A stretch of 64,000 bases of DNA from Eledone cirrhosa (lineage: Eukaryota), in contig OZ024752.1 in assembly GCA_964016885.1 (NCBI GenBank), positions 37,758,001 through 37,822,000 on the forward strand, read 5' to 3'. Shown here piece after piece: positions 15,213-45,831 of the stretch. Every line of letters starts with the position of its first letter. Position 1 is the stretch's first letter. Made by a program: the position numbers and the translations under genes. The notes under the pieces were generated by a model. That model was given only the letters and a program-made list of their open reading frames with translations, was not told the DNA's origin and did not search any database.

Positions 15213-15721
15213 GAAGTAAAGGGGTTAATCCAGTGTTCTAATTAGCTTGCCAAGTCATGCTGACAGGAAATAGTATATATATATATATATAGTAATAATA
15301 ATAAAATTGAAGACTAAAATCCAAAGAGGGCTCGATAAGGAAAATATATATCAAATATATAAGAACCGTAGAGCAAATATTTATTTTAATAAATATATAT
15401 ATATATTTCGAGGTTCAAATTCGTCTACGGAACAGGTTTGGATTTTGAAATTTAAATCTGTCCAGGAATCATGGCCGTTGCCAATATAAGCTTGTCTTTA
15501 TTGACTTATATCGAGACAGACAAATTGTATTCACTTTAATTAGTTTATTTCATTAATAGCTAACTTTGTCTGTTGCAATGTAAACACGTTTCGTGTTTAT
15601 CATATATTTTAATGTATATATATATACACGGAGACACAAAGCAGAATTTGTTTACAAATGGCTAGCGAATTTGAAAATTGCGTAGTAACATGTGCTTACA
15701 CCATAAGCACATGTTACTACG

Positions 15722-15756
<35 letters not shown>

Positions 15757-16084: not shown

Positions 16085-19000
16085 TGTGGGCCTCACACTA
16101 GCAGGGATCACGGCAGTGGGCCTCACACCAGTGGGCCTCAGACCAGTAGACCTCACACCAGTGGACCTCACACCAGTGGATCTCACACCAGTGGACCTCA
16201 CACCAGTAGGCCTCACACCAGCAGGGATCATGCCAGTAGACCTCACACCAGTGGACCTCACACCAGCAGGGATCATGCCAGTAGACCTCACACCAGCAGG
16301 GATCATGCCAGTAGACCTCACACCAATGGGCCTCACACCAGTGGACCTCACACAAGTGGACCTCACACCAGTGGATCTCCTACCAGTAGACCTCACACCA
16401 GCAGGGATCATGCCAGTAGACCTCACACCAGTAGGCCTCACACCAGCAGGGATCATGCCAGTAGACCTCACACCAATGGGCCTCACACCAGTGGACCTCA
16501 CACAAGTGGACCTCACACCAGTGGATCTCCTACCAGTAGACCTCACACCAGCAGGGATCATGCCAGTAGACCTCACACCAGTAGGCCTCACACCAGCAGG
16601 GATCATGCCAGTAGACCTCACACCAATGGGCCTCACACCAGTGGACCTCACACAAGTGGACCTCACACCAGTGGATCTCCTACCAGTAGACCTCACACCA
16701 GCAGGGATCATGCCAGTAGACCTCACACCAGTAGGCCTCACACCAGCAGGGATCATGCCAGTAGACCTCACACCAATGGGCCTCACACCAGTGGACCTCA
16801 CACAAGTGGACCTCACACCAGTGGATCTCCTACCAGTAGACCTCACACCAGCAGGGATCATGCCAGTAGACCTCACACCAGTAGGCCTCACACCAGCAGG
16901 GATCATGCCAGTAGACATCACACCAGTGGACCTCACACCAGTAGGCCTCACACCAGCAGGGATCATGCCAGTAGACCTCACACCAGTAGGGATCATGCCA
17001 GTAGACCTCACACCAGCAGGGATCATGCCAGTAGACCTCACACCAGCAGGGATCATGCCAGTAGACCTCACACCAATGGGCCTCACACCAGTGGACCTCA
17101 CACCAGTGGACCTCACACCAGTGGACCTCACACCAGTGGATCTCCTACCAGTGGACCTCACACCAGTGGACCTCACACCAGTGGACCTCACACCAGTAGA
17201 CCTCACACCAGTGGACCTCACACCAGTGGACCTCACACCAGTAGACCTCACACCAGTAGACCTCACACCAGTGGACCTCACACCAGTAGACCTCACACCA
17301 GTGGACCTCACACCAGTGGACCTCCTACCAGTGGACCTCCTACCAGTGGACCTCACACCAGTGGACCTCACACCAGTGGACCTCACACCAGTGGATCTCC
17401 TACCAGTGGACCTCACACCAGTAGACCTCACACCAGTGGACCTCACACCAGTGGACCTCACACCAGTGGACCTCACACCAGTGGACCTCACACCAGTGGA
17501 CCTCCTACCAGTGGACCTCACACCAGTGGACCTCACACCAGTGGACCTCACACCAGTGGATCTCCTACCAGTGGACCTCACACCAGTAGACCTCACACCA
17601 GTGGACCTCACACCAGTGGACCTCACACCAGTGGACCTCACACCAGTGGACCTCACACCAGTAGACCTCACACCAGTAGACCTCACACCAGTGGACCTCA
17701 CACCAGTGGACCTCACACCAGTGGACCTCACACCAGTAGACCTCACACCAGTGGACCTCACACCAGTGGACCTCACACCAGTGGACCTCACACCAGTGGA
17801 CCTCACACCAGTGGATCTCCTACCAGTGGACCTCACACCAGTGGACCTCCTACCAGTGGACCTCACACCAGTGGACCTCACACCAGTGGACCTCACACCA
17901 GTGGACCTCACACCAGTGGACCTCACACCAGTGGACCTCCTACCAGTGGACCTCACACCAGTGGGCCTCACACCAGTAGACCTCACACCAGTGGACCTCA
18001 CACCAGCGGACCTCACACCAGTGGACCTCACACCAGTGGACCTCACACCAGTGGACCTCCCACCAGTGGACCTCACACCAGTAGACCTCACACCAGTGGA
18101 CCTCACACCAGTGGGCCTCACACCAGTGGACCTCACACCAGTGGACCTCACACCAGTGGACCTCACACCAGTGGACCTCCTACCAGTGGACCTCACACCA
18201 GTAGGCCTCACACCAGTGGACCTCACACCAGTGGACCTCACACCAGTGGACCTCACACCAGTGGACCTCAAACCAGTGGACCTCACACCAGCAGACCTCA
18301 CACCAGTGGACCTCACACCAGTGGACCTCACACCAGTGGACCTCACACCAGCGGACCTCCCACCAGTAGACCTCACACCAGTGGATCTCCTACCAGTGGA
18401 TCTCCTACCAGTGGACCTCACACCAGTGGACCTCACACCAGTGGACCTCACACCAGCGGACCTCACACCAGCGGACCTCACACCAGTGGACCTCACACCA
18501 GCGGACCTCACACCAGTGGACCTCCCACCAGTAGACCTCACACCAGTGGACCTCACACCAGTGGACCTCACACAAGTGGACCTCACACCAGTGGACCTCA
18601 CACCAGTGGACCTCACACAAGTGGACCTCACACCAGTGGACCTCACACCAGTGGACCTCACACCAGTGGACCTCACACCAGTGGACCTCACACCAGTGGG
18701 CCTCACACAAGTGGACCTCACACCAGCGGACCTCACACCAGTGGATCTCCTACCAGTGGACCTCCTACCAGTGGACCTCACACCAGTGGACCTCACACCA
18801 GTGGACCTCACACAAGTGGACCTCACACCAGTGGGCCTCACACAAGTGGACCTCACACCAGTGGACCTCACACCAGCGGACCTCACACCAGTGGATCTCT
18901 TACCAGTGGACCTCACACCAGTGGACCTCACACCAGCGGACCTCACACCAGTGGATCTCCTACCAGTGGACCTCCCACCAGCGGACCTCACACCAGTGGA

Positions 19001-22000
19001 TCTCCTACCAGTGGACCTCACACCAGTAGACCTCACACCAGTAGACCTCCCACCAGTGGACCTCACACCAGTGGACCTCACACCAGTAGACCTCACACCA
19101 GTAGACCTCACACCAGTGGACCTCACACCAGTAGACCTCACACCAGTGGACCTCACACCAGCGGACCTCACACCAGTGGACCTCACACCAGTGGACCTCA
19201 CACCAGCGGACCTCACACCAGTGGACCTCACACCAGCAGACCTCACACCAGTGGACCTCACACCAGTGGATCTCCTACCAGTGGACCTCACACCAGTGGA
19301 CCTCACACCAGCGGACCTCACACCAGTGGACCTCACACCAGCGGACCTCACACCAGTGGATCTCCTACCAGTGGACCTCACACCAGCGGACCTCACACCA
19401 GCGGACCTCACACCAGCGGACCTCACACCAGCGGACCTCACACCAGTGGACCTCACACCAGCGGACCTCACACCAGTGGACCTCACACCAGCGGACCTCA
19501 CACCAGTGGGCCTCACACCAGTGGACCTCACACCAGTGGGCCTCCTACCAGTGGACCTCACACCAGCGGACCTCACACCAGTGGACCTCACACCAGCGGA
19601 GTTACACCAGTGGACCTCACACCAGTGGGCCTCACACCAGTGGACCTCACACCAGTGGACCTCACACCAGTGGACCTCACACCAGTGGACCTCACACCAG
19701 CGGAGTTACACCAGTGGACCTCACACCAGTGGACCTCACACCAGTAGATCTCCTACCAGTGGACCTCACACCAGCGGACCTCACACCAGTGGATCTCCTA
19801 CCAGTGGACCTCACACCAGCGGACCTCACACCAGCGGACCTCACACCAGTGGACCTCACACCAGTGGACCTCACACCAGTGGATCTCCTACCAGTAGATC
19901 TCCTACCAGTGGACCTCACACCAGCGGACCTCACACCAGCGGAGTTACACCAGTGGACCTCACACCAGTGGACCTCACACCAGTGGACCTCACACCAGTA
20001 GACCTCACACCAGCGGAGTTACACCAGTGGACCTCACACCAGTGGGCCTCACACCAGTGGACCTCACACCAGTGGATCTCACACCAGTGGATCTCCTACC
20101 AGTGGACCTCACACCAGCGGACCTCACACCAGCGGACCTCACACCAGTGGACCTCACACCAGTAGACCTCACACCAGTAGATCTCCTACCAGTGGACCTC
20201 ACACCAGCGGACCTCACACCAGCGGACCTCACACCAGTGGACCTCACACCAGTAGACCTCACACCAGTGGACCTCACACCAGTGGACCTCACACCAGTGG
20301 ACCTCCCACCAGTGGATCTCACACCAGCGGACCTCACACCAGTGGACCTCACACCAGTGGACCTCACACCAGCGGACCTCACACCAGTGGACCTCCTACC
20401 AGTGGATCTCACACCAGTGGACCTCACACCAGCGGACCTCACACCAGTGGACCTCCCACCAGTGGATCTCACACCAGCGGACCTCACACCAGTGGACCTC
20501 ACACCAGTGGACCTCACACCAGCGGACCTCACACCAGTGGACCTCACACCAGTGGACCTCACACCAGTAGACCTCACACCAGCGGACCTCACACCAGCGG
20601 AGTTACACCAGTGGACCTCACACCAGTGGACCTCACACCAGTGGATCTCCTACCAGTGGACCTCACACCAGTGGACCTCACACCAGCGGACCTCACACCA
20701 GTGGACCTCACACCAGCGGACCTCACACCAGTGGATCTCCTACCAGTGGACCTCACACCAGCGGACCTCACACCAGCGGACCTCACACCAGTGGACCTCA
20801 CACCAGCGGACCTCACACCAGTGGACCTCACACCAGCGGACCTCACACCAGTGGACCTCACACCAGCGGACCTCACACCAGTGGGCCTCACACCAGTGGA
20901 CCTCACACCAGTGGGCCTCCTACCAGTGGACCTCACACCAGCGGACCTCACACCAGTGGACCTCACACCAGCGGAGTTACACCAGTGGACCTCACACCAG
21001 TGGGCCTCACACCAGTGGACCTCACACCAGTGGACCTCACACCAGTGGACCTCACACCAGCGGAGTTACACCAGTGGACCTCACACCAGTGGACCTCACA
21101 CCAGTAGATCTCCTACCAGTGGACCTCACACCAGCGGACCTCACACCAGTGGATCTCCTACCAGTGGATCTCCTACCAGTGGACCTCACACCAGCGGACC
21201 TCACACCAGCGGACCTCACACCAGTGGACCTCACACCAGTGGACCTCACACCAGTGGATCTCCTACCAGTAGATCTCCTACCAGTGGACCTCACACCAGC
21301 GGACCTCACACCAGCGGAGTTACACCAGTGGACCTCACACCAGTGGACCTCACACCAGTGGACCTCACACCAGTAGACCTCACACCAGCGGAGTTACACC
21401 AGTGGACCTCACACCAGTGGGCCTCACACCAGTGGACCTCACACCAGTGGATCTCACACCAGTGGACCTCACACCAGTAGATCTCCTACCAGTGGACCTC
21501 ACACCAGCGGACCTCACACCAGCGGACCTCACACCAGTGGACCTCACACCAGTAGACCTCACACCAGTGGACCTCACACCAGTGGACCTCACACCAGTGG
21601 ACCTCCTACCAGTGGACCTCACACCAGTGGACCTCACACCAGCGGACCTCACACCAGTGGACCTCACACCAGCGGACCTCACACCAGTGGACCTCACACC
21701 AGTGGACCTCACACCAGTGGACCTCACACTAGTAGACCTCCTACCAGTGGATCTCACACCAGTGGACCTCACACCAGCGGACCTCCCACCAGTGGATCTC
21801 ACACCAGCGGACCTCACACCAGTGGACCTCACACCAGTGGACCTCACACCAGCGGACCTCACACCAGTGGACCTCACACCAGTGGACCTCACACCAGTAG
21901 ACCTCACACCAGCGGACCTCACACCAGTGGACCTCACACCAGTAGACCTCACACCAGTAGACCTCACACCAGTAGACCTCACACCAGTGGACCTCACACC

Positions 22001-22209
22001 AGTAGACCTCACACCAGTGGACCTCACACCAGCGGACCTCACACCAGTGGACCTCACACCAGTAGACCTCACACCAGTGGACCTCACACCAGTGGACCTC
22101 ACACCAGTAGACCTCACACCAGTGGACCTCACACCAGTGGACCTCACACCAGTAGACCTCACACCAGTGGACCTCACACCAGCGGACCTCACACCAGCGG
22201 AGTTACACC
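16085..22209. repeat. 15-bp minisatellite (consensus CCAGTGGACCTCACA), ~400 units, in UCP4 intron 2
   Basis: Direct tandem periodicity; variant units GGGATCATG, GATCTCCTA and 14-nt GGAGTTACA. Confidence 0.99.
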
Positions 22210-23881: not shown

Positions 23882-24127
23882 GGGCTTCGCGTAACATTCC
23901 ATATTTAAGTAAGTAAAAGTAAATATGTATGGATAAATGATAGTGTAAATACTGTCCGGGTAAAGATTATAGAAAGTCTCTGGATATGTCAGTTATCAAT
24001 ATGGCGTTCTATCTTACTACATGGTTGCATACCGGATCTTAATTCATAATAAAGAAAACGAATTGATCCTTTTCTATTAATCCAGGGAATTGAAAATTGG
24101 GTAACAGGGTTTATAGACTGAAAACTG

Positions 24128-26930
24128 AAATCATTTGATTTGCTTCAGCTTGTATCTGTGGGAAGTCATTTGATTTGCTTCAGCTTGTATCTGTGGGAAA
24201 TCATTTGATTTGCTTCAGCTTGTATCTGTGGGAAATCATTTGATTTGCTTCAGCTTGTATCTGTGGGAAGTCATTTAATTTGCTTCAGCTTGTATCTGTG
24301 GGAAATCATTTGATTTGCTTCAGCTTGTATCTGTGGGAGGTCATTTGATTTGCTTCAGCTTGTATCTGTGGGAAATCATTTGATTTGCTTCAGCTTGTAT
24401 CTGAGGGAAGTCATTTGATTTGCTTCAGCTTGTATTTGTGGGAAATCATTTGATTTGCTTCAGCTTGTATCTGTGGGAAATCATTTGATTTGCTTCAGCT
24501 TGTATCTGTGGGAAGTCATTTGATTTGCTTCAGCTTGTATCTGTGGGAAATCATTTGATTTGCTTCAGCTTGTATCTGTGGGAAGCCATTTGATTTGCTT
24601 CAGCTTGTATCTGTGGGAAGTCATTTGATTTGCTTCAGCTTGTATCTGTGGGAAGTCATTTGATTTGCTTCAGCTTGTATCTGTGGGAAGTCATTTGATT
24701 TGCTTCAGCTTGTATCTGTGGGAAATCATTTGATTTGCTTCAGCTTGTATCTGTGGGAAGTCATTTGATTTGCTTCAGCTTGTATCTGTGGGAAATCATT
24801 TGATTTGCTTCAGCTTGTATCTGTGGGAAATCATTTGATTTGCTTCAGCTTGTATCTGTGGGAAATCATTTGATTTGCTTCAGCTTGTATCTTTGGGAAG
24901 TCATTTGATTTGCTTCAGCTTGTATCTGTGGGAAATCATTTGATTTGCTTCAGCTTGTATCTGTGGGAAATCATTTAATTTGCTTCAGCTTGTATCTGTG
25001 GGAAATCATTTAATTTGCTTCAGCTTGTATCTGTGGGAAATCATTTGATTTGCTTCAGCTTGTATCTGTGGGAAATCATTTGATTTGCTTCAGCTTGTAT
25101 CTGTGGGAAATCATTTGATTTGCTTCAGCTTGTATCTGTGGGAAATCATTTGATTTGCTTCAGCTTGTATCTGTGGGAAATCATTTAATTTGCTTCAGCT
25201 TGTATCTGTGGGAAGTCATTTGATTTGCTTCAGCTTGTATCTGTGGGAAATCATTTAATTTGCTTCAGCTTGTATCTGTGGGAAATCATTTGATTTGCTT
25301 CAGCTTGTATCTGTGGGAAGTCATTTGATTTGCTTCAGCTTGTATGTGGGAAATCATTTGATTTGCTTCAGCTTGTATCTGTGGGCAATCATTTGATTTG
25401 CTTCAGCTTGTATCTGTAGGAAGTCATTTGATTTGCTTCAGCTTGTATCTGTGGGAAGTCATTTGATTTGCTTCAGCTTGTATCTGTGGGAAGTCATTTG
25501 ATTTGCTTCAGCTTGTATCTGTGGGAAGTCATTTGATTTGCTTCAGCTTGTATCTGTGGGAAGTCATTTGATTTGCTTCAGCTTGTATCTGTGGGAAATC
25601 ATTTGATTTGCTTCAGCTTGTATCTGTGGGAAATCATTTGATTTGCTTCAGCTTGTATCTGTGGGAAGTCATTTGATTTGCTTCAGCTTGTATCTGTGGG
25701 AAGTCATTTGATTTGCTTCAGCTTGTATCTGTGGGAAATCATTTGATTTGCTTCAGCTTGTATCTGTGGGAAATCATTTGATTTGCTTCAGCTTGTATAT
25801 GTGGGAAGTCATTTGATTTGCTTCAGCTTGTATCTGTGGGAAGTCATTTGATTTGCTTCAGCTTGTATCTGTGGGAAATCATTTGATTTGCTTCAGCTTG
25901 TATCTGTGGGAAGTCATTTGATTTGCTTCAGCTTGTATCTGTGGGAAGTCATTTGATTTGCTTCAGCTTGTATCTGTGGGAAGTCATTTGATTTGCTTCA
26001 GCTTGTATCTGTGGGAAATCATTTGATTTGCTTCAGCTTGTATCTGTGGGAAGTCATTTGATTTGCTTCAGCTTGTATCTGTGGGAAGTCATTTGATTTG
26101 CTTCAGCTTGTATCTGTGGGAAGTCATTTGATTTGCTTCAGCTTGTATCTGTGGGAAGTCATTTGATTTGCTTCAGCTTGTATCTGTGGGAAATCATTTG
26201 ATTTGCTTCAGCTTGTATGTGTGGGAAATCATTTGATTTGCTTCAGCTTGTATCTGTGGGAAATCATTTGATTTGCTTCAGCTTGTATCTGTGGGAAATC
26301 ATTTGATTTGCTTCAGCTTGTATCTGTGGGAAATCATTTGATTTGCTTCAGCTTGTATCTGTGGGAAATCATTTGATTTGCTTCAGCTTGTATCTGTGGG
26401 AAATCATTTGATTTGCTTCAGCTTGTATCTGTGGGAAATCATTTGATTTGCTTCAGCTTGTATCTGTGGGAAGTCATTTGATTTGCTTCAGCTTGTATCT
26501 GTGGGAAGTCATTTGATTTGCTTCAGCTTGTATCTGTGGGAAGTCATTTGATTTGCTTCAGCTTGTATCTGTGGGAAGTCATTTGATTTGCTTCAGCTTG
26601 TATCTGTGGGAAATCATTTGATTTGCTTCAGCTTGTATCTGTGGGAAGTCATTTGATTTGCTTCAGCTTGTATCTGTGGGAAATCATTTGATTTGCTTCA
26701 GCTTGTATCTGTGGGAAATCATTTGATTTGCTTCAGCTTGTATCTGTGGGAAATCATTTGATTTGCTTCAGCTTGTATCTGTGGGAAGTCATTTGATTTG
26801 CTTCAGCTTGTCTCTGTGGGAAATCATTTGATTTGCTTCAGCTTGTATCTGTGGGAAATCATTTGATTTGCTTCAGCTTGTATCTGTGGGAAATCATTTA
26901 ATTTGCTTCAGCTTGTATCTGTGGGAAGTC
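24128..26930. repeat. 35-bp tandem satellite (TCATTTGATTTGCTTCAGCTTGTATCTGTGGGAA[A/G]), ~80 units, in UCP4 intron 1
   Basis: Head-to-tail copies with no spacers. Confidence 0.99.
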
Positions 26931-27094
26931 AGGTCTTCTGTATTATATATATATGTGTGTGTGTGTGTGTAGCTACAGTTACAGGCAGTGTGCTGTTCAA
27001 AGCATTCAATGCTGTTACGAGGTCTATCTTGTGTTTGGTTGTATTCCAGAGTTAAGACAGTTGTGGTGTGCAGAGTGTAAATAAAAGTCACTGT

Positions 27095-27158
<64 letters not shown>

Positions 27159-27492
27159 AACGAGTAGGACCCCGACGGCTGAGCTCAAGCCATTTCGACA
27201 GCTAATTCTGGACTAAAAAGATTTTAGTCCAGAATTTAGTCGAAATGGCTTGAGCTCAGCCGTCGGGGTCCTACTCGTTCCTATTACCCACTCTACTACC
27301 CTAAATATTGAGTACTTTGGTGCGTTATGGTCCATCTGGTTCCTTACCACATTTCTTCGTTATATATATATATATATATATGTAAAAGTAGGTTGGATCG
27401 AAGTCACTGTTGCAGCATATATATAAACTTTATTGGCATACTCCAATCATTTCAATATTGATCAGCTCAGGGTTCAGTTTTAATGCCAATAA

Positions 27493-27527
<35 letters not shown>

Positions 27528-27567
27528 GATATTAAATAAATTGAAACTATATTTATAAAACCATATT

Positions 27568-27632
27568 TATTTCATTATACATATTTCAGGGATACCAAAT
27601 TAAAATATGGTATGCCTTCATCAGACAAAATA
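27568..27632 (-). ncRNA. Minimal type-I hammerhead ribozyme motif (intact core)
   Basis: Minus strand reads TATTTTGT-CTGATGA-AGGcATACCA/TGGTATcCCT-GAAA-TATGTA-TA-ATGAAATA; stems I and II pair. Confidence 0.7.
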
Positions 27633-27791
27633 CAATATATAAACAGTTTTATAAATAGACATTGACGTACCCTATTAAATGCAACCATTATTTTTGGAAG
27701 CTGTCTGGACAACTATCCAGACAGCTTCCAAAAATAATGGTTGCATTTAATAGGGTACGTCAAAATTATTTATAAAACTGTTTATATATTG

Positions 27792-27856
27792 TATTTTGTC
27801 CGATGAAGGCATACCATATTTTAATTTGGTATCCCTGAAATATGTATCATGAAATA
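27792..27856 (+). ncRNA. Hammerhead motif, mirror copy with core substitution (CCGATGA)
   Basis: Palindromic partner of 27568-27632; U4->C change in the catalytic core. Confidence 0.55.
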
Positions 27857-28266
27857 AATATGGTTTTATAAATATAGTTTCCATTTATTTAATATCGTAT
27901 ATATATATATATATATATAAACTTTATTGGCATTAAAACTGTACCCTGAGCTGATCAATATTGAAATGATTGGAGTATGCCAATAAAGTTTATATATATG
28001 CTGCAACAGTGACTTCGATCCAACCTACTTTTACATATATATATATATATATATATATATAACGAAGGAAATGTGGTAAGGAACCAGATGGACCATAACG
28101 CACCAAAGTACTCAATACTTAGGGTAGTAGAGTGGGTAATAGGAACGAGTAGGACCCCGACGGCTGAGCTCAAGCCGTTTCGACGGCAAATTCTGGACTA
28201 AAATCTTTTTAGTCCAGAATTAGCTGTCGAAATGGCTTGAGCTCAGCCGTCGGGATCCTACTCATT

Positions 28267-28344
<78 letters not shown>

Positions 28345-30488
28345 GATCATCATCATTTTACATCTGTTGTTCCATGCTTGCATGGGTTTGGCGGGTCTTT
28401 CTCAGTACAGCATCTCTCCACTTGTCATCTCCATAAGCTTTAGCAATCTTCAATCAGCTCTCATAACTTCTATCCAGGTCTTCCTTTACCGCGTCCTCCC
28501 TCCACTGGGATTACATGGCATTTCTTCATATATATATATCATCATCACCATCGTTTAACGTCCATCTTCCACGCTAGCATGGGTAGGACGGATTGTCCCT
28601 TTGTTAGGGATAAGGTCGGGGACCGTGATTTGCTCATTCGGAACTGATTTGGCCTGGTTTCTGCAGCTGGATGCACTTCCTAACACCAACCACATTCACA
28701 GTGTATCCTGGGTGCTTTTTGCCGCGTTCCCTACACAACCACTTTACAGTGTGGACTGGTGCTTTTGTCATGACACCTACACAACCACTTTACACAGTTA
28801 ACTGGGTGCTTGCTTTTGTCATGACACCTACACAACCACTTTACAGTTGACTGGGTGCTTGCTTTTGTCATGACACCTACACAACCACTTTACACAGTTG
28901 ACTGGGTACTTGCTCTTTTCATGACACCTACATGCCCACGACAGTAGGCTGGGCTCTTTTGTCGTGACTCCAGCAGGGATCAATTTATAGAGGAAGTTGG
29001 GAACTTGGGTGAGGCGGGGAAGAAGCCTGGGAAATTGGGAACGTAGGTATAAGGGAGGTTTATAGGAGGGGAGATGGTAGCAAATGGTGTCATATATATA
29101 CAGAGACAATCCCCCACCATCCCTACCTCAATAATATATGCCTGGGCAATACAGGAGAAAGAGATTTCTCTGACATGCAGAGATTTCTCTGTATGCCTCC
29201 ACATGGTCCCAGCAGACAGACTGTTAATCTGTTTGCCAACCTTTAGCAAGGCTTAGACTAATGAGATAACAAGGTAGGCTAAATCCTCAAGGCATGGTTT
29301 CTACTACAAACACTATCACTTCTGCTCTGTAAAATGATAAGATATAAATATAAATCTAATTTGAACAGCTGAATGACATCTAGATAATACACAAAATAAC
29401 AAAGTTCAAACTAATTGTCTTAATATGTATGAAAATCTTCAGACAGCTTTTATTAATTTGTCGTCATCATCATCATCTTTTACATTGACACGACAATCTC
29501 TCCTGTCTAACCCATGGATACAACAATGAATGCGGGACAGACTCTCTATCTGATCTCACACAATGCCATTGACATAACAAAAAGCACTAGGTCCACCCTG
29601 TATGCTGATTCGGTGTCACAACAACAAAAGCACCAATTTCATCCTGTATGGTAGTCATGCTGGAGACATGACAAAAAGCACCCAGTCCACTCTGTAAAGT
29701 GGTCGTGTTGGTGATATGACAAAAAGCAGCCAGTCCACACTGTAAAGTGGTTGGCACTGGGAAGGGTATCCAACCAAGCCAAAATACAGATCCATATGAG
29801 CAAGGTGGGTCTCCAGATTTGATAACCTGTTTAACCCATGCAAGCAAGGAAAAATAGATATTAAATTATGATGATGATGATGATGATGCCTTTCAAAAGC
29901 TGGCCTGATTAGCCACCAATGAATTCAAAAGGCCAAACAAAAAGTTGACTACAGTAAGTGCACCACAATAGGTAGCGTAACACAGTTCACAAGGGAAGAT
30001 CTGCAAATCTATTGGTAGATATAAAATACACATCAGCATATTGATGTGTATATATATATATATATATATTATATTATATTTAGAGTTATAAACTCAAACA
30101 GTCTTTTACAATTAATTAGCTCAAAGAAAGAAGCATTTCCGAGCCGTATTGCCAATATGGGTTTGTTTTTATTGATTTATTATTTTAATAATAATAATAA
30201 TAATGAAATTATTGTGTACAGTGCTCAGGTGCACTACAAATGGTGTCATATATATAGCAAATGGTGTCATATATATACAGAGACAATCCCCCACCATCCC
30301 TACCTCAATATATTTATTTGAATTAGTTTATTTCATTCTAGCTAAATTGGTCATTTGCAATACAAACACTTATGTGTTTATCATATATTAATTTATATTA
30401 ACTTGTATATATATATATATCATCATCATCATTTCATTTTACGTCCGCTTTTTCCCTGCTTGCAAGGGTATATATATATATATATATA

Positions 30489-30675
30489 TTTTATAGAAGG
30501 AGCTTCTACAGGACTAGTACTGTTTTATTCAGATGAAATCTTCCTGAAGATTTCATCTGAATGAAACAGTACTAGTCCTGTAGAAGCTCCTTCTATAAAA
30601 TAAAAAAATTTTACTCTGCCATGTATTGAGTACCTTACTTACTGTGGTTATCCCCGACTCAACCCGGGACCTACG
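30489..30675. repeat. Short foldback element whose inversion axis coincides with a hammerhead core
   Basis: Arms 30489-30600; CTGAAGA at 30544, GAAAC at 30563; 3' tail ACTCTGCCATGTATTGAGTACCTTACTTACTGTGG nearly identical to the 35240 copy; bounded by (TA)n. Confidence 0.8.
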
Positions 30676-33555
30676 TATATATATATATATATATATATGT
30701 AGTTTTGTTTGTAAGATTAGTGACCAAGTCCTGCTTGTACACTTAATTTGGACTTGGTTTCTACGTCTGGATACTCTTCCTAATGCCAACTACTTTACAG
30801 CATATACTGGGAGAAGTGTTTCTATGGTTGGATGTCCTCCTCCCCTAATACAAACCACTTTATAGCATGTACTAGGAGCATGGTTTCACAGCTGGATACT
30901 TTTCTGAACACCAACCACTTTATCATGACTCCAGCACTACAACCTTACAAGTTGAACTGAGAGTGCTTTTCGTTGTGGCACTAACACTTTACAGGGTCAA
31001 CTGGGTGACACACAGTCACATGATGGGCTTTCCACTTTCCATCTACCAAATTTCACTTAAAAGGAATTAGTTAACTCCAGTGCTATAGAAGAGTGGCCTA
31101 TTGGTAAGGGTGTTGGATTTATGATCATAATGTCATGAGTTTGATTTCTGGACTGAGTTGTGTGTTGTGTTCTGGAGCAAAACACTTTATTTCCCATTGC
31201 TTCAGTATAGCCAGCTGTTGCTGGGAGTTTAACCCTGTGATGGACTGGCATCCGGTCCAGGGGGAAGTTTTGTACTCCCAGTTGCTTCATACCACGGAAA
31301 CCAGGATAAACCTCAGCCTGATGATCCTCCAAGCTCGAGACAGACTTTAGAATGCTATAGTAGAAGATATTTTCCCAGATCAAAACTAAAACAATATGGA
31401 TGAGAACTTCTTAACACAGCCATAGCTACAAGTGACATATTTTTTTTATTGGTCTCTTTCAATCTACTCCCACAAATTTTCTACCTTTGCCCAGAGCTAG
31501 TTAAGAAAAGTCAGTGGAAAAGTTGCATATGACAACACTATTATGCCAAAATATGGTGCTCCCTCATTTGAGAAATTTTAAATCTTCAACTTTGTTAAGT
31601 TAAACTCGAAAACCAAGTACAGTCAGAGACCCTTTAGCTCCTTCCCACATTCTGGGTATTGTGGCAAAGGTGAGGATCACTGCATCTGTAGCTGAACGGA
31701 ATAAAGTTCTAAAGTATCAAGAAGTATATACTATTTTACCTGTTCCAGCCATCCGGGTGAGGACATCCTGTGGCACCACCCTTACTGAAACTATATTTTT
31801 TTAGATCGTGACGTACGTGGAGTTTGGGGTAGCTGAGCCGCAGACGAGGCTCGCCTTACATATCAAGTGTAGACCGTATGGGTGCTTGGCTATTCCAAGC
31901 ACTCTAGCAGTGCTACGCGAGTGTGTTGGAATTATTAGAGGCAAACGCCAGCGTCACTCGTGAAATCTGAGTGTGCGTGCTTCCTTCTACTTTTTATACA
32001 ACATATTATATAACGAGCTAATAATTGTTTCTACTTTAGGCACAAGGCCAGCAATTACCCAGTGCATTACTGGTACTTTATTTTAACGACCCCGTAAGGA
32101 GCTAATAATGGCTTCTTAAAACCAAAATGAAAATTATAGAGTGCGTGTGCTTTTATTGGCAACATGACCATCCACAAATATAACAATATATATATATTAA
32201 GAATGCATTTTTTAAAACAGAATGCATGCAAATAAACGCAATATATATACATATAATTCTTTTTTAATAGAATGTGTGCAAATAAACGCAATATATATAT
32301 ATATTGCGTTTATTTGTATACATTCTATAAAAAAAAAAAACTATTAAAAGACCTTTTAATAGAAAAAAATCTTTCGTCGTCAATGGAATAATATTGATTT
32401 ATTTAGCTGGTTGTTGGTTGTAGTTACAAACCAACAAAGAGCCTAAATCCCATCAAAGAGCACAGCCGATGTTAGTAAACAAATGACACGACTGTCTATA
32501 CAAAAGTACGGGTGACTTTTATAATTCGTTTGACGAGCCAATTGGTGTCTCAAAGGGACTGGTCGACCTACTAGAAATAGCAGCGAAATCTTTGTTTGTT
32601 ATATATATATATATATGTATTATATTTATAAGGTTCCTAATAATAATTGATTACATGTATTTTTTCTATTTAATCTTATATATTTGTTATATGATAAGGA
32701 AATACTTACAGCAACCTAAAAATAAAAAATAAGCAAGCTAACGCTTGATGTAGTTAGGAATATATCTTTTATTAAGATTTAATAAAGAAGAGAGGATGGT
32801 CACAAATGGAAAGCTTTTGATCACAATTCTCATTGATGAGGGCCAGCCTGAAGTTAGTTTCGTTTTCTCATTGCAAAGGAAGTAAAATTAACGAAAACAT
32901 AACCAATATTTAAAAAAAAACATAAACATTGTCTAAATTCATTGGGAGATGACAATAAATATATTTATATTAGGAATATATAGTTATTTAAATATTATAT
33001 TCTAATGGAAGAACATGTGAAATGGCAGAGGAAATATAAATTCATTTACACCGCAATAGCAACATGCTCATTTTCTGTTTTTACTTATTATAATTGTTTC
33101 TACCTTTGGCACAAGGCCAGCAATAGCCCAGTGCATTACTGGTACTTTAATATCGCTATTTTTCTTTTTAAAAACCGCTGTATTTGTTTTGCTTATTTTC
33201 CGCTTGACTTCAACGAATCCGCCCATCTTCAATGTGTATTGCTTAATATTTTCCCCCTAAAATAAACGACACCGTAACACGTGTATGTTGTTAATAATCA
33301 GCGTATTGTAACTTTTATTAAATGGCTTTCTCTATATTTGAAACTTTTCGTCTATCTCTCTTTCTCTCTCTCTATCTATTTATCTAAATAGCGTAACATT
33401 TACATTAAACATGACATATAAACAATAACTACTTTATCTATATTTCTTTCTGTGAACGACCGAAAAGAATAGAGCATAGTACAAAATAAAACAAGAATAG
33501 AAGAGAAAAACATGAGTTTTGTTATAAAATAACACAAACATAAAGTTAATCTTAC

Positions 33556-33640
33556 CAGTTTCAGCCACAACAGCTGAGACAGACGAAAGTAAATATTTAA
33601 AAGCAAATTCGTTATATTTGTTGCCATCTTTCACCAACAT
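33556..33640 (-). CDS. SLC25A27: Mitochondrial uncoupling protein 4 (SLC25 carrier), coding exon 1
   Basis: ATG at 33640; encodes MLVKDGNKYNEFAFKYLLSSVSAVVAET (TM1 start, UCP4-like K(F/Y)LLS..AxVAE); G|GTAAG donor, phase 1. Confidence 0.88.
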
Positions 33641-34081
33641 CACAGCAATTTTTTAAATACTTTTTAAAAGACTTGCTGAGGAAATTAGTACCACACTTAC
33701 TTTATCAATTCCTCTACTGAATAATCTGGTGTATAACTATCACTCATACCCGCCCTAACCCAGATTTCTGAGCTGTATTTATAAGTAAACACATTTGTTT
33801 TCTTCCACGGTAGTTAACTATATTGACTGTCACAAGATATATCCATTGACGCACGAAACGGTCTAATGACTACACTTCTAGTTTAATTACTGAAAATCGG
33901 AATGTTTTATGTTTTATTTTTAGATTTCACTTATATTTTCCTATTAGAAGCATTGTTCTTATAATTATCATTTTAATGCCCTGAGCATTAAAAGGATAAT
34001 TATAAATAATCATGAAAATACATTATGAGCTCAATTATCTAGTATCATTTTAATTATTCTGGCAGGTACAGGATACAACAA

Positions 34082-34118: not shown

Positions 34119-35180
34119 AGCATAGACTTCACTGTACTTGCCGACGTTGTGATTAGAGAATCAATATGTATATGTACAATATTATGTAAGAGTTGGAATA
34201 GACAATAGCATATTTAACAGAATAAATTTGTATTTAGCCCTAGGTAGGCTTTTTTTTTTTTTTTTACTGTTCCTTTTTATGATAGCAGTATATGATGTGA
34301 CGGAAATTTCGCTGCTATTTCTAGCAGGTCATTTGAAGGTAAGTAAAGCGGTTTCCTTGTTAACATGAGAAATTATAATTTTTATTTCATAGATTTGATA
34401 AACACGACTTTCGGCTCAGACAGATGCACACATACAGGGGCGGCGAAAGCATTTCTGAATATTGGTAGTGATGGAGGTGTGGTGGGAGGTGGAGGTGTGT
34501 GTGTGGGGGGGGGGGGGTTAGTAATTGTGATTAGTTTAGCTCTTTGCACTCTAAAATGTCAAGAAAATGCAATTTGAGTTCAAGGAGGTCATATTACATT
34601 TACAACTTTCAATAATCATAAAGTGATTATAGCAAAATGACCTATGAAATCTGTCTCTGAACACATACTAGCAATTGGCAAATAGTGATATGTGGAGAAA
34701 AAGTTATGACATGACAAAAAAAAATTATTATGAAGGTTAACATAATATATTACACTGTTATTATCAAATATCAACCAAGGTATAAAAGAAAACTTCGATA
34801 TGCGATAAACATAACATGTACATAAATTGTAGCACATTTTACAAATAGATGTGTTTTGGTAGTTTAGGGAGAAAAATGTGATTATTGCACATACACACCC
34901 CTACCCCCAGTTCCACCGACCCTGATTCATCACGGAAAAAAACCCCAGTTGATGGATGTGAATCCGAAATATATAGGGACTATTAAATCTCTCCCAAGGT
35001 AACTCTCTCTTGTGTTGTTATTTTTATTTTTATCCTTTTACTCTTCCCTCCATTCTACACATCTCACACATCTTATACACACCACGCATCTCAACGTACA
35101 CCCACTTACATCTCTCTCTCCACCACCGGACCTTGTTACCCGGAGATTTACCCATTTGCATTGTCGAGGCTTCCAAACGA

Positions 35181-35239
<59 letters not shown>

Positions 35240-35240
<1 letters not shown>

Positions 35241-35430
35241 AGTTTTAATATAGAAAAGCTTCTACGGGACTAGAACTGTTTCATTCGTGAGAAATCATCA
35301 GCCTGATGATTTCTCACAAATGAAACAATTCTAGTCCTGTAGAAGCTTTTCTATATTAAAACTTTTATACTCTGCTATGTATTGAGTACCTTACTTACTG
35401 TGGACACCCCCGATTGAACCTGGAATAACT
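35240..35430. repeat. Second copy of the short foldback hammerhead-core element
   Basis: Arms 35240-35364 centred on C35302; CTGATGA begins immediately on both strands; same 3' tail as the 30489 copy. Confidence 0.8.
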
Positions 35431-35487
35431 TATATATATATATCAATGATATTAAATAAATGGAAACTATATTTATAAAACCATATT

Positions 35488-35548
35488 TATTCTATTATAT
35501 ATATTTCAAGGGTACCAAAATTTTGGTACGCTCTCATCAGATAAAATA
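35488..35548 (-). ncRNA. Minimal hammerhead ribozyme motif
   Basis: TATTTTAT-CTGATGA-GAGcGTACCAAAATTTTGGTACcCTT-GAAA-TATATA-TA-ATAGAATA. Confidence 0.72.
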
Positions 35549-35657
35549 CAAAGTTTGTTTTATAAATATTGACATATCCATGAAGAAGATCTTAACAGTT
35601 CAAGTTGTTCCTGGATAGTAAAAGGAAAGATCCCTTTTGCTTATATATATATATATA

Positions 35658-36048
35658 TATATTAATAAAAGGAATTCCAACTTTGTCTGATTTACTCGTT
35701 TTATTTACAATCCTTTAACATTTATAATGGTATTATAATGAAATAGTATGATAGAATATTAAATGTTAAGTGTTAATTGAACAAGTACTTTCATGCTTTC
35801 GCAATCTTCAGGTTCATAATGTGTGGTGCCAGTCGAGTTTACAATTTTCAACTGTTGAAAATTGCAAACTTGACTGTCACCACACATTATGAACCTGAAG
35901 ATTGCGAAAGCATGAAAGTACTTGTTCAATTAACACTTAACATTTAATATTCTATCATACTATTTCATTATAATACCATTATAAATTTTAAAGGATTGTA
36001 AATAAAACGAGTAAATCAGACAAAGTTGGAATTCCTTTTATTAATATA
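35658..36048. repeat. ~390-bp foldback palindrome next to (TA)n
   Basis: Near-perfect inverted arms centred on T35853. Confidence 0.97.
35890..35928 (+). ncRNA. Minimal hammerhead ribozyme motif (identical mirror copy on minus strand at 35778-35816)
   Basis: TGAAC-CTGAAGA-TTGC(GAAA)GCAT-GAAA-GTAC-TT-GTTCA: 5-bp stem I, GNRA-capped stem II, palindromic AGTACT stem III. Confidence 0.75.
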
Positions 36049-37688
36049 ATCTTCTATACACAATCATACACACCCGTGTATATTTATCTATCTATATATA
36101 TAGATATATATATACAGAGAGTGAGAAAGAAAGAGTGAGAGAGTATTGTAGTTCTATACATATGTGCACATGTCAACTATTCGAACACGATCCACTGGAT
36201 ATGCAACAGAAGTAAAATGAACGCCGAAGCTCGGATGAACTGAGAGAAAAAAAAACTGGCCATTAGAATAGAATTGCGTGTGTGCAGACACTTTCATAAA
36301 AACCTAGTCAAGGGGAGGTAACCAGATTTGTATGTATGGGTGAGTGTACAGCGTATGATAGTTTATGCGCGTGTGCGAGTTGGTATTTTCTGGTTGTTGC
36401 CCCGAGCAGACGAAAACTATTCTCTGTTCAACAAATCCATTCAAAGAGTTTGGGCCTATCTCGATCTTCAGGTTATCTCAGTGACAACTTCCTAACCATA
36501 GAGCCACGTTAAAATATATATAGGGTTATTAATAAATAAATATATATATATATTGATATTTTTTAATCAAGTTTTAATATATTGTAATCCTTACAAGATA
36601 AAATCAAAGCTAATTATATATATACACATATATATATACACACACACACACATATCGTCTGCCTGTCACACACCTCGTGGATTGTCTCTCGCTGTCGACA
36701 ACTGGTCGCAGGTCTGTCCTGTGAGGCATTTTTAGCCATCGCTTTCTTTGACGGCATTTTGCTGTTCTAACGATGAGTTTTCTCATTTATATATATATAT
36801 ATATATGCATACATATTCTTTGTTTATGTTCATACACAGAACGGGAAAACGCTAACTTTGGTTTCAATATCTAGTAATGATCATCTCCCCAGACTGTACA
36901 CAGTACAGGGAGGTGGCCTTGAAAATTAAGGTACCCTTTTTTTTTTTTTGTTCTGAGTATGAACATAAATATATAAAAAAATATATATATACATATATGC
37001 GGGTACGAGACTATGCACAATATATACGTATGTATATGTACCAGAATCGAACATGCTTCACTAGATTTATAACGACGAGTAACTGAACGACGAACACCGG
37101 ATGATTTCAGAGAAAAACTGAGCACAGGAAGATAAATGCGTGTGTGTAGATATTTGGTTCAAATGTAGTCAAAGGGGAGATAATCAAAATAAATCTTATG
37201 CAGTCAACTGTCGTCTGTTAAACCTGTTAAAGCTCCTTGAAACTGATAATAACATACATTTGTAGCAATTGAATGAATTAGAAAAGTTTGAGTGTTAATA
37301 GTTGGATGGAGACTCGATGATTTCACCATTTACCCTCGTTATAAACCCCGTATAACATACCACTGTCAGTGACTCTTGTCTTTTCCAACATCCAAGATTA
37401 ACAGAATAAACTTCTGAAATAAAATGTTTTATAAAACTACCACAGAATTATAATTATTTTTACCTATATAAAATTACTTGATGTCACCCACAGTGACAAA
37501 TATATACACTCCCCAAATATACCCGTTTTATGACGACAGAGAGAGAGAGAGAGAGAGAGAGGGGGGAGAGAGAGAGGTAATATATTAGTATATTCTGTGA
37601 GAATCCTACCGTAACCCATTCAGATGCAATAACTTGTAAGGAACAAAATTTGTTGATAAGTGTTTGCTTTCTCCATCGTAAATTTCTG

Positions 37689-37753
<65 letters not shown>

Positions 37754-37981
37754 CGCGTCTGTTTGTTTAACCAGGCATCCGCTCGGCCGAAGCCGACCTC
37801 GAACGAAAGTCGACCTACCCTCAATTAAGCCAACAAGGTATCGTTTTATGTATTGATGATACTGTGCACTGTATCCTTCAGTAGCTTTTTTAAAAGGGAG
37901 ATTTGGCTGCTATTTTTAGCACATCTCAACGGGTGAAAGTCCTTATGCGATCGCTCAATATAGCAGATAAATATTCCTAAA

Positions 37982-38025
<44 letters not shown>

Positions 38026-40475: not shown

Positions 40476-40609
40476 AGGTAGATCAGGAATAGAATGCTAT
40501 CTGCCTCTGTATTTGAAGGAGACATGTGTAAATCAATTAAATAATGTATTAAAGCTGGGACAAGGGCAAAGAGTTTTGTGTTATTATCAGAGAGGCCTAC
40601 AACAACCTA

Positions 40610-42430
40610 GCCCACCAACATCTCAACGACAACAGTCTCTACTCGGAAGTCACTATAATTACACCTGCGTTGATAGAAAACCGGATCAACACCGCCTGGA
40701 CCAAAATCTGCGACCGACGAAGGCTCCCGAAGGGATTCCGGTATAATTACATAACGAGAAACAGCAGGCTGCCTAACTTCTACCACCTGATCAAAACTCA
40801 CAAAGAAGGACCCGCCCTGAAAATTAGACCCATTGTCTCCAGTGTTGAAGGACCATTTTATAAAATCTCTTGGCTTCTGTCCAAGGTTTTAAAGCCCCTG
40901 TTGACAACCTTCCCTGGCCACGTTTACAGCTCGGATGATGTTATCCACCGACTTAACCAACTAGAACTTGACACCTTCAAATCCAACAGGTACGCCTTCA
41001 GCCTAGATGTAGTATTCCTCTACACATCGGTAACTGCACTCCCGGCAGTGGACATACTCACTGAATGTGTCGGTTTCAGCGACCTGGATTGTAAACAATG
41101 CCTTTTTCAACTACCTGGGTCAAACCTACCGACAGACCGCTGGACTGCCCATGGGATCCAGCCTCCCGGGTTTACTGGCCATTTTCGAATCTTCCAACAA
41201 TGTTGACAATAACATCAAGTTCAGCATTGAACATCCCACCGACTCCGGGTCCCTCGCCTTACTCGATTTCAGACTGAACATCTCTGATAGCGGTGATATC
41301 CACACCGATTTCTACCGCAAAGCGACCAATAGGGACCTGTTTGGGCATTACAAATCTGCCCTCCCCAACAGCTCTAAAAGAAGGTACACCTTCAACGAAA
41401 TGGCTCGCATACACAACCAATGTAGTGACGCTGCTAATAGAACCACCCATACCAGACGATTCGACAAAGAACTAGACATTAACAGCTATCCAGCTTCCTT
41501 CTCCACTCCACTATGAAACCCCAGATCCAGAGACCGGACCAACACAAACAGCAGTTGCTTCTTCAAGATCCCACATCCAGCGAGGAAACCACCAACGCCA
41601 TACGCAAAGCCATCAGAAGAGAGGGCCTCAATATCAAACTAGTTCACTCTGGACCTTTCCTGCGCAGATGCCTCTCCACAAGACAACACCCCAACGTGGA
41701 TAACGGATGCACCCTAGAAATTGCCCCATCTGCAACACTATTTGGTGCTTACGTACCTACGTAGTATACTGGCTAGAATGTAACAAGTGCAATCTATTTT
41801 ACATAGGCAACACTATTCGACCGTTACCCCCCCCCCCCCCCCCCCCATTAAACAGCATGTTAACACCAACTCCTCTTCCTTCCGCAAACACATCATCAAA
41901 TGCGGAAACCGGACAACATTGCCACCACAATCTTAGCTACCGAACGCAGTATAGGCACGCTGAGAATTAAGGAAGCTCTCTTAATCAAGCAATTAAAACC
42001 TAGGACCAATAATCGAATGGAAAGAAGTGCACCAGAATGGCTAATTTAAAAGCCTGTATTCCAACATCCCAGCGGCCAGTTTCATTCTTTCTTTCAAATT
42101 AAATCTATGTCCTCACTAAGCAAACACTACACACATACACATATTTCCCGTTTTATTATATACATATTCGCACACACCTTTGACTACATAAACTTACATT
42201 CATGTACACATATACAAAGATCCCACTAAGCACACTTACATTCACGCACACACATACACATATCATACATTTCACAACGCGCACGTTCGAAATTATAACG
42301 TCTTTTCATTTCATTTCACTTAAATCTGCTCTTCAAACAAGCAAATCAACTCTGATCGATCTTTTAAGTCTCTTAAGGATACTCCTTTGATAATGGGTTT
42401 TTAAACATGAAAATATTTCGGATTATCAAA
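40610..42430 (+). mobile_element. Decayed Penelope-like retroelement (RT + GIY-YIG endonuclease)
   Basis: Frameshifted segments LPNFYHLIKTHKEGPALKIRPIVSS, SLDVVFLYTS, YRQTAGLPMGSSL, IKFSIE..LALLDF..TDFYRKAT and VVYWLECNKCNLFYIGNTIRPL; YVDD region absent; decayed hammerhead-like motif at 42383-42422. Confidence 0.9.
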
Positions 42431-43023: not shown

Positions 43024-43089
43024 TATTTTATCTGATGAGGACGTACTGATGAAATAGCTCAGTACCTCTGAAATATGTATAATAAAATA
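43024..43089 (+). ncRNA. Minimal hammerhead ribozyme motif
   Basis: TATTTTAT-CTGATGA-GGAcGTACTGA/TCAGTACcTCT-GAAA-TATGTA-TA-ATAAAATA; perfect 8-bp stem I. Confidence 0.75.
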
Positions 43090-43422
43090 TATTTGATCAC
43101 ATAAATGTCTATATTTATTAATATTTTGAAGTAATCATCATCATCATCATCGTTTAACGTCCATCTTCCACGCTTGCATGGGTTTGGACAGGAGTTTTCC
43201 CACTTGAGGCAAGATTGGTTGTCCTGCTCGTATAGGACTGTCTGGCGGGTTTTCTACGGCTGGATGCCCTTCCTAACACCAACCACGTTTACAGTGTGGA
43301 CTGGGAGGTTTTTACCGTGTTACCTACACGGCCAATATATATATATATATATATACGTTTCGGACATAAGCCCTTCTTCACGCGAAAAGTGTGTGGGAAG
43401 AGAGTTCCAAGGGTGTGTAAGA

Positions 43423-43662: not shown

Positions 43663-44070
43663 TTATGTAATAAACAACATAAGATAATTATTTCATTTAC
43701 CAGTGGTTTCTTGAAACCAAACAAATCTGCTTTCAGTCATCAGAATGAAAAAATCCTGGTCTACATAACTATTAAGCTCTGTAAGCTACATAGAGCACTC
43801 TTTTTTCCTGGACCTTTCCGACAGAATTACTTCATTTATATATATTGTTTATAGTCTTAATTAATGGCATCTAACTTTCTGTTTTTGCCAATTAAATATA
43901 CATTTATTTACATTGTTTTAGTTGTTTATTTCTATAGTTCTTAATTTGTCGACTAGTTTTACTACATTGAGTTACTAGGGTAATATACTTCAGTGAGAGA
44001 TCGAACCCAGGTAAACTTTTCTATTGAATGGAAAGCGATTGGGTAATTTCTGGCAACGTCAGCATCGTTA

Positions 44071-45728: not shown

Positions 45729-45831
45729 ATGAGTTGGTGGGATTCACAGAACTTTGCTGACTTAGCTTCTAATGCATTGAGAAATGCACAGAAAAAAATT
45801 GATAAAGTACTTGATATTCAAGATGAAAAAG
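45729..45831 (+). CDS. TMF1: TATA element modulatory factor 1 (golgin TMF), first coding exon
   Basis: MSWWDSQNFADLASNALRNAQKKIDKVLDIQDEK matches the conserved TMF1 N-terminal MSW...A..AL..AQK.ID.VLDI motif; acceptor TAG at 45692-45694, donor G|GTAAA. Confidence 0.9.

Follow-up and report, generated by a model that had tools for sequence, protein, structure and literature searches.

A hammerhead-bearing palindrome of Eledone cirrhosa: a probable head-to-head pair of 5′-truncated Penelope-like element ends in a TA microsatellite

The palindrome at positions 35658 to 36048 of the window, the 64-kb stretch of Eledone cirrhosa DNA analysed here, carries a small hammerhead motif in each arm and no coding part, which raises the question of what it derives from and how its two halves came to face each other. 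An inverted-repeat search of the window placed the arms at 35658-35852 and 35854-36048, bearing out the exact coordinates of an earlier note on this DNA. The arms are 195 nt each and 98% complementary, with T35853 between them (391 bases in total), and four pairs are mismatched (35719/35987, 35829/35877, 35835/35871 and 35841/35865). We consider it very probable that the locus is a head-to-head pair of 5′-truncated 3′ ends of a high-copy family, inserted into a TA microsatellite by the enzyme of a Penelope-like element (PLE), and it is probably inert. Its parts are these:

35642..35657, no strand: (TA)n tract, left side of the presumed target (from the sequence)
35658..35852, minus strand: left arm, a 5′-truncated 3′ end of the repeat family, its short, tail-less end set against (TA)n (repeat comparison)
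35778..35816, minus strand: mirror copy of the type I hammerhead motif, identical (motif search)
35851..35855, no strand: axis, ACTGT on the plus and ACAGT on the minus strand, a candidate microhomology joint
35854..36048, plus strand: right arm, a 5′-truncated 3′ end of the same family as the left arm
35890..35928, plus strand: type I hammerhead motif (motif search, conservation)
36049..36079, plus strand: one-sided tail of ~30 nt, in which family sequence continues to a second 3′ end
36080..36115, no strand: decayed TA-rich tract, right side of the presumed target (from the sequence)

The palindrome is thus not the whole of the element, which reaches beyond 36048 because a 30-nt one-sided tail follows. 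TA tracts lie on both flanks, and a target-site duplication is not readable within (TA)n. The minus-strand ACAGT at the axis is the repeat family's own sequence at that place, as seen in organisms B and C. When the arm and tail were compared with the window by self-BLAST, only the mirror arm was found and no further copy, and the three reading frames of arm plus tail all contain stops.

Outside the window the arm is abundant. Eight of 20 sequencing runs were aligned, X1, X4, X5 and X6 on 35400-36300 and X18, X19, X3 and X7 on 35854-36080; X1 and X3 possibly come from the window's own sample, and the family is present under four organism labels, A as well as B, C and D. In X1, summed contig depth in the arm bins was 94,000-782,000, and over 36144-36298 it was 21-133, a contrast of three to four orders of magnitude, contig depth being no copy count. 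About 2,450 raw reads of the arm were found in each of X18 and X19. A single-copy arm was one of the things that, in the earlier note, would together have told against its reading; in these runs the arm is a high-copy repeat.

The contigs also show where copies of the family end. Among the loose ends listed (the best 24 of 309 and the best 24 of 355), the short 3′ end at 36048, followed by (TA)n, was seen in 36 contigs of X1, 4 of X5, 3 of X6, 29 of X3 and 35 of X7. Also among the ends listed is a second 3′ end, behind 36077 and 36078 in X3 (3 contigs each) and at 36079 in X7 (10 contigs, then (TA)n), and contigs of X5 and X6 extend to 36069-36074. There are thus two alternative 3′ ends 29-31 nt apart, both running into (TA)n, with the tail on the right arm only at our locus; because the family has both ends, 36049-36079 is read as an optional family tail. 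A hairpin before the short 3′ end (about 35992-36054) was not clearly better than chance, with z of -1.38 and -1.61 and 20 and 9 of 200 shuffles as good.

At the other end, contigs of X5 and X6 run on upstream of 35854 without a mirror, and their loose ends terminate in ...CATTACA. One X5 contig matches 35854-35954 without any difference and then continues for 284 unmirrored letters; in X1, two contig records have long unaligned parts. The upstream continuation was read in letters in organisms B and C, not in A. Because these other copies continue upstream without a mirror, the axis marks a truncation point in a longer element. The RAD-seq reads break at AATT sites near 35860, 35931, 35984 and 36030 and for that reason are unable to show the axis; their loose ends at AATT sites were taken as library chimeras and not used.

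These properties are those of a truncated, inverted insertion of an endonuclease-bearing (EN+) PLE: the sequence is multi-copy, its 5′-truncated copies stand head to head, the tail is optional, the target is AT-rich or (TA)n, and a hammerhead lies in the terminal repeat. Published PLE insertions include strongly 5′-truncated copies, some of them inverted, with (TA)n as target and a tail of 30-40 bp at one end (PMC8557442). Also described are pLTRs inverted head to head, their junctions palindromic and one of the two bearing a 31-bp tail, for which self-priming was proposed, and short palindromes at pLTR 5′ ends (PMC3846280). The locus shares with these insertions (PMC3846280, PMC8557442), as the available parts of the reports describe them, the inverted terminal pieces, the palindromic junction, the one-sided ~30-nt tail and the AT-rich/(TA)n target, in which no duplication can be read. 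It differs from them in consisting of two terminal pieces only, from which a clade (Penelope/Poseidon, Neptune, Nematis, Hydra) is not assigned. In Octopus vulgaris, PLEs have been reported to be abundant and partly recent (PMC13282606). The Penelope-like reading of the earlier note is therefore upheld by the multi-copy arm, both PLE-type 3′ ends and the (TA)n site. The surprise that it implied is not, since both the 5′-truncated inverted copies that lack a coding part and minimal hammerheads paired across opposite strands are already in print. A MITE or fold-back DNA transposon family would be symmetric throughout, with terminal inverted repeats at each end, which does not agree with the one-sided tail and the unmirrored copies.

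No coding element tied to the arm was found in the window, and a decayed gene some 40.5 kb into it has no DNA in common with the arm and belongs to a different family. That gene, at 40553-42050 (+), had 34 protein matches of the RT + GIY-YIG kind among 316 candidates, and its relatives carry PF00078 and PF01541. A Pfam search of three of its fragments returned nothing, and its PLE nature is accordingly taken from the protein matches, not from Pfam. It shows frameshifts, a DKG motif, and RT and GIY-YIG-like remains. Neither the hammerhead pattern nor the 3′-end pattern was found in the viral, metagenome and prokaryote genome contig collections.

The hammerhead motif is 39 nt long. Stem I (TGAAC/GTTCA) has 5 bp, the core consists of CTGAAGA (CUGAAGA) and GAAA, stem II has 3 bp with a GAAA loop, helix III is the palindrome AGTACT, and cleavage is predicted after 35923 (U17 of a CUU triplet). 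All of the core (C3 U4 G5 A6 N7 G8 A9, G12 A13 A14 A15.1, U16.1 H17) and the closing stem I are present. The G10.1-C11.1 pair of the published consensus (CUGANGAH G...C GAAA) is absent and U35902.U35913 stands in its place, because of which the motif is a variant of the consensus, not a member. A natural stem II beginning with U10.1-U11.1 has been described, and it is the best tolerated mismatch there (PMC3088659). A strict descriptor (CTGA.GA, stem II of at least 3 pairs, GAAA, a perfectly palindromic helix III, H, and stem I of at least 5 pairs) matched three times in the window, at the two motifs of the palindrome, which are not independent of each other, and at 35540 (-); it matched in none of 100 block-wise dinucleotide shuffles of the window. 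Rfam, at its gathering score, matched nothing in the 64-kb window.

Metazoan PLEs carry minimal hammerheads of low, dimer-dependent activity in their pLTRs, mostly as truncated singles, with dual ones about 100-700 bp apart on opposite strands (PMC4209133). Our motif resembles these type I hammerheads in that its core is CUGANGA and GAAA, its stem I is short and its palindromic helix III depends on a partner, and also in the large families and opposite-strand pairs. Compared with those in the accessible part of that report, it differs in the U.U for G10.1-C11.1, the 3-bp stem II and the CUU cut triplet, and its two copies stand 73 nt apart in place of 100-700 bp. In predicted folds, two 39-mers reach -16.4 kcal/mol in a double-hammerhead layout versus -4.2 per monomer, with a dimer helix that over-pairs (A14 is also paired with U17); the monomer fold is no better than shuffles (z -0.31).

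In the raw reads, 1 of the 39 motif positions varies at 3% or more compared with 24 of 148 flanking positions (a provisional Fisher p = 0.03; 37 rows used among the 40 listed of 58, three tail rows left out), and none of the 14 positions that vary at 10% or more lies inside the motif. The single variable motif position is a change of A15.1 to C, at 4-4.5%. Among the changes listed for other organisms are insertions in loop II (X5, X7), an altered outer pair of stem I, and U17 to A, an allowed letter, at 20% of depth in X7. In X4, a listed change at 35919 (22% of depth) breaks the palindrome of helix III unless compensated. This change, the U.U pair, the pairing of A14 with U17 and the unremarkable monomer fold speak against activity. 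The hammerhead reading of the earlier note thus holds in the form of a conserved, dimer-type motif, with identical, outward-pointing copies in the two arms at 35890-35928 (+) and 35778-35816 (-).

The same note had stated that the transcript of either strand contains one motif, which is true as far as it goes; in each, however, the motif is predicted to be buried, because its antisense copy precedes it in the same RNA. Read-through RNA of either strand is predicted to form a 195-bp hairpin of about -291 kcal/mol, and in the fold of the whole palindrome the pair probabilities of stems I and II are 3e-48 and 4e-16. Nor can the two motifs partner each other in one RNA, as they lie on opposite strands. 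If these folds are right, the question of cleavage at the locus is probably moot, and its read-through RNA would likely serve as a substrate for RNA editing, not as a ribozyme.

How might such a head-to-head pair arise? A GIY-YIG endonuclease would nick both strands of (TA)n, and each free end would serve as a reverse-transcription primer within the element RNA, the first at 36048 and the second at about 36079. Both reverse transcriptions would stop near 35853, and the two cDNA ends would anneal through the near-palindromic ACAGT, by 4 of 5 bases, and be sealed. Since both arms continue past the predicted cut site, by about 70 nt on its upstream side, the RNA copied would not have been cleaved; the hammerhead of the parent element would act as a dimer and at a slow rate. 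In vitro, a PLE protein nicks and extends both strands and begins reverse transcription within the RNA, at two positions that set the tail, and hammerhead cleavage is not required for insertion (PMC11167929). The protein in question is that of the anole Poseidon element PAc, which our locus resembles in the two start sites defining a tail and in the AT-rich target; we also count as likenesses that both strands are extended and that insertion does without hammerhead cutting (PMC11167929). It differs from PAc, in the portion of the report available, in that the PAc reading frame starts at stem II, where our arm has stops in all three frames. Provided that the locus is a PLE insertion, such two-ended priming in (TA)n is the route that we would somewhat favour, and a self-priming fold-back, which fits the junction equally well, would be a less probable candidate of real weight. 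Joints near the predicted cut site (35770-35923, depth 83, and 35784-35854, depth 22, one contig each) were too few to serve as a sign of cut templates.

At each of the four arm mismatches it is the left arm that carries a letter other than the commonest one of the family. Two of its letters are family variants at 12-14% and 19%, and a third occurs at 3-4.5%. This gives a weak hint that one enzyme dimer used a separate RNA molecule as template for each arm, a hint weakened because one of the two more frequent variant sites is a CpG.

The palindrome does not stand alone, four further TA-flanked palindromic stubs lying within 9 kb of it. The two neighbouring hammerhead-like modules of the earlier note are present: the one at 35540 (-) is complete, and in the one at about 35303 (+) the 5′ strand of stem I is cut off by its own palindrome axis. 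The stubs 30487-30602 and 35234-35370 form one family, other than that of the arm and 79% alike, with a one-sided tail of about 60-70 nt (with tails, 30487-30670 and 35234-35428); their turning point lies right at the CUGA of their hammerhead, and these hammerheads, which have a long helix III, show U.U at 10.1/11.1 as well. A palindromic stub at 27154-27284 has a mirror at 28139-28271, within a 1.23-kb palindrome (27098-28327, 95% alike) whose axis at 27710-27715 falls inside a hammerhead-bearing PLE-type end. Besides TA tracts, the arms of this larger palindrome repeat in mirror image a mini-palindrome of 62 nt and a second palindromic stub, 131 nt long and with a one-sided tail of ~80 nt; the inversion has copied a whole nest of flanking stubs, and one of the mirror hammerheads there has CCGATGA in place of CTGATGA. 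A third hammerhead-bearing family (35431-35585 (-), 27511-27662, 27753-27913 and 43024-43124), with ATATATAT or ATATGTAT as helix III, is more abundant than the arm in X1, with summed depth of up to 3 million. A complete-looking hammerhead-like motif at 43743 (-) has a palindromic ACCACTGGT-like helix III and ends in (TA)n, and a degenerate one lies at about 34921-34978 (+). Short palindromes of 47-76 nt occur at 15677-15725, 32260-32335 and 33959-34005.

Could the palindrome itself be the mobile element, a non-autonomous unit with a fixed axis that a PLE enzyme copies whole from the transcript of either strand? An A in place of T at the axis, as expected where such a unit is read from the other strand, accounts for 19,245 of a summed depth of 43,432 in X1, where 22 contigs have it, and for 129 of 192 in X4, where 8 do. 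Joints at other turning points reach depths of only 2-83 (5 of 10 joints listed), and the turning points of the two 79%-alike stubs coincide to within about 3 nt. The A suggests that the axis recurs in many copies, the reach of the A-contigs into the left arm lying outside the table; none of these contigs was seen in X5 or X6. However, the family's own upstream ACA could have been aligned across the axis, and one X6 contig that lies on the left arm does not cover the axis; there are also copies that run on upstream unmirrored and joints that turn elsewhere, and an RNA with a fixed 5′ end would give a fixed axis as well. For these reasons we think a self-copied palindrome quite unlikely. That a mirror unit of the PLE terminal repeat with a fixed axis and at least hundreds of copies forms a self-propagating, strand-indifferent retroelement, seeding 195-bp double-stranded RNA hairpins into introns, is likewise unlikely. 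A search of titles and abstract openings, mostly from journals other than subscription ones, found none on a fixed-axis palindromic PLE derivative, on twin priming in PLEs or on octopus hammerheads.

Animal retrozymes are derived from pLTRs in a preprint (bioRxiv 10.64898/2026.07.22.740005), and the arm might instead be a piece of a non-LTR retrozyme monomer, from a tandem hammerhead repeat for which a small circular RNA is the template, mobilised by PLE proteins. With those of metazoans (bioRxiv 10.64898/2026.07.22.740005) it shares the type I hammerhead, the relation to pLTRs and the absence of a coding part; its palindromic helix III and very high copy number also speak for such an origin. 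Retrozymes are defined, in the available text of that report, by tandem units each with a hammerhead, whereas here there is no tandem and a single arm per strand. Moreover, the upstream stretch of 284 letters in X5 has no match in arm or tail and shows no wrap-around, so that any monomer in organism B would have to be longer than about 510 nt, and no joint going back was found among those listed; such an origin seems to us very improbable. A switch selected by the host, cutting RNA independently of strand for the carrier gene or the divergent gene beside it, could be imagined from the position of the palindrome between the divergent start codons 33640 (-) and 45729 (+), possibly in a 5′-untranslated intron. 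Against it, the fold is predicted to be shut in read-through RNA, the locus is one of very many copies in a window crowded with similar stubs, and its arms differ by only 2%, as expected of a recent insertion, leaving the idea hardly credible. Near-perfect palindromes are also a known class of artefact, and no contig among those listed spans the whole stretch. Yet the four arm differences, the tail on one side only, the outer ends that are both family-wide ends and the recovery of 81% of sampled words in X1 make a fold-back chimera of assembly or library a practically negligible prospect.

Read as a PLE insertion, the palindrome is one more copy of known retrotransposon debris, of small importance alone. 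It is also clean material on how PLEs make inverted copies, by fold-back or by two-ended priming; if many copies share the axis, the alternatives become a mirror unit that propagates and inversions that arise de novo where the RNA has a fixed 5′ end. Long double-stranded RNA drives heavy A-to-I editing in octopus (PMC5625713), and palindromic stubs may be a source of such RNA for editing, a link that is putative.

The window around the locus is microsatellite-rich, with 38% G+C. The palindrome lies 2.0 kb from the start codon, at 33640 (-), of a mitochondrial-carrier gene, in agreement with the distance of ~2 kb in the earlier note. PF00153 was found on both of the two exon ORFs tested of this gene, which we take to be UCP4. 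The gene starting at 45729 (+), for which Pfam gave no match, presumably resembles TMF1. Judged from sequence only, an acceptor-like site near 33676 (-) and a donor-like site at 37609 (-) make a non-coding first exon and a 5′-untranslated intron of the carrier gene possible, and the palindrome could lie inside that intron; a CpG-richer patch at 37600-38000 is a candidate bidirectional promoter shared by both divergent genes. A link between the palindrome and the carrier gene is not supported by the tests run. Long minisatellites at 16086-22209 and 24127-26931, with a 15-nt-based unit and a 35/70-nt unit, lie in introns of the carrier gene, where they give long repetitive open frames.
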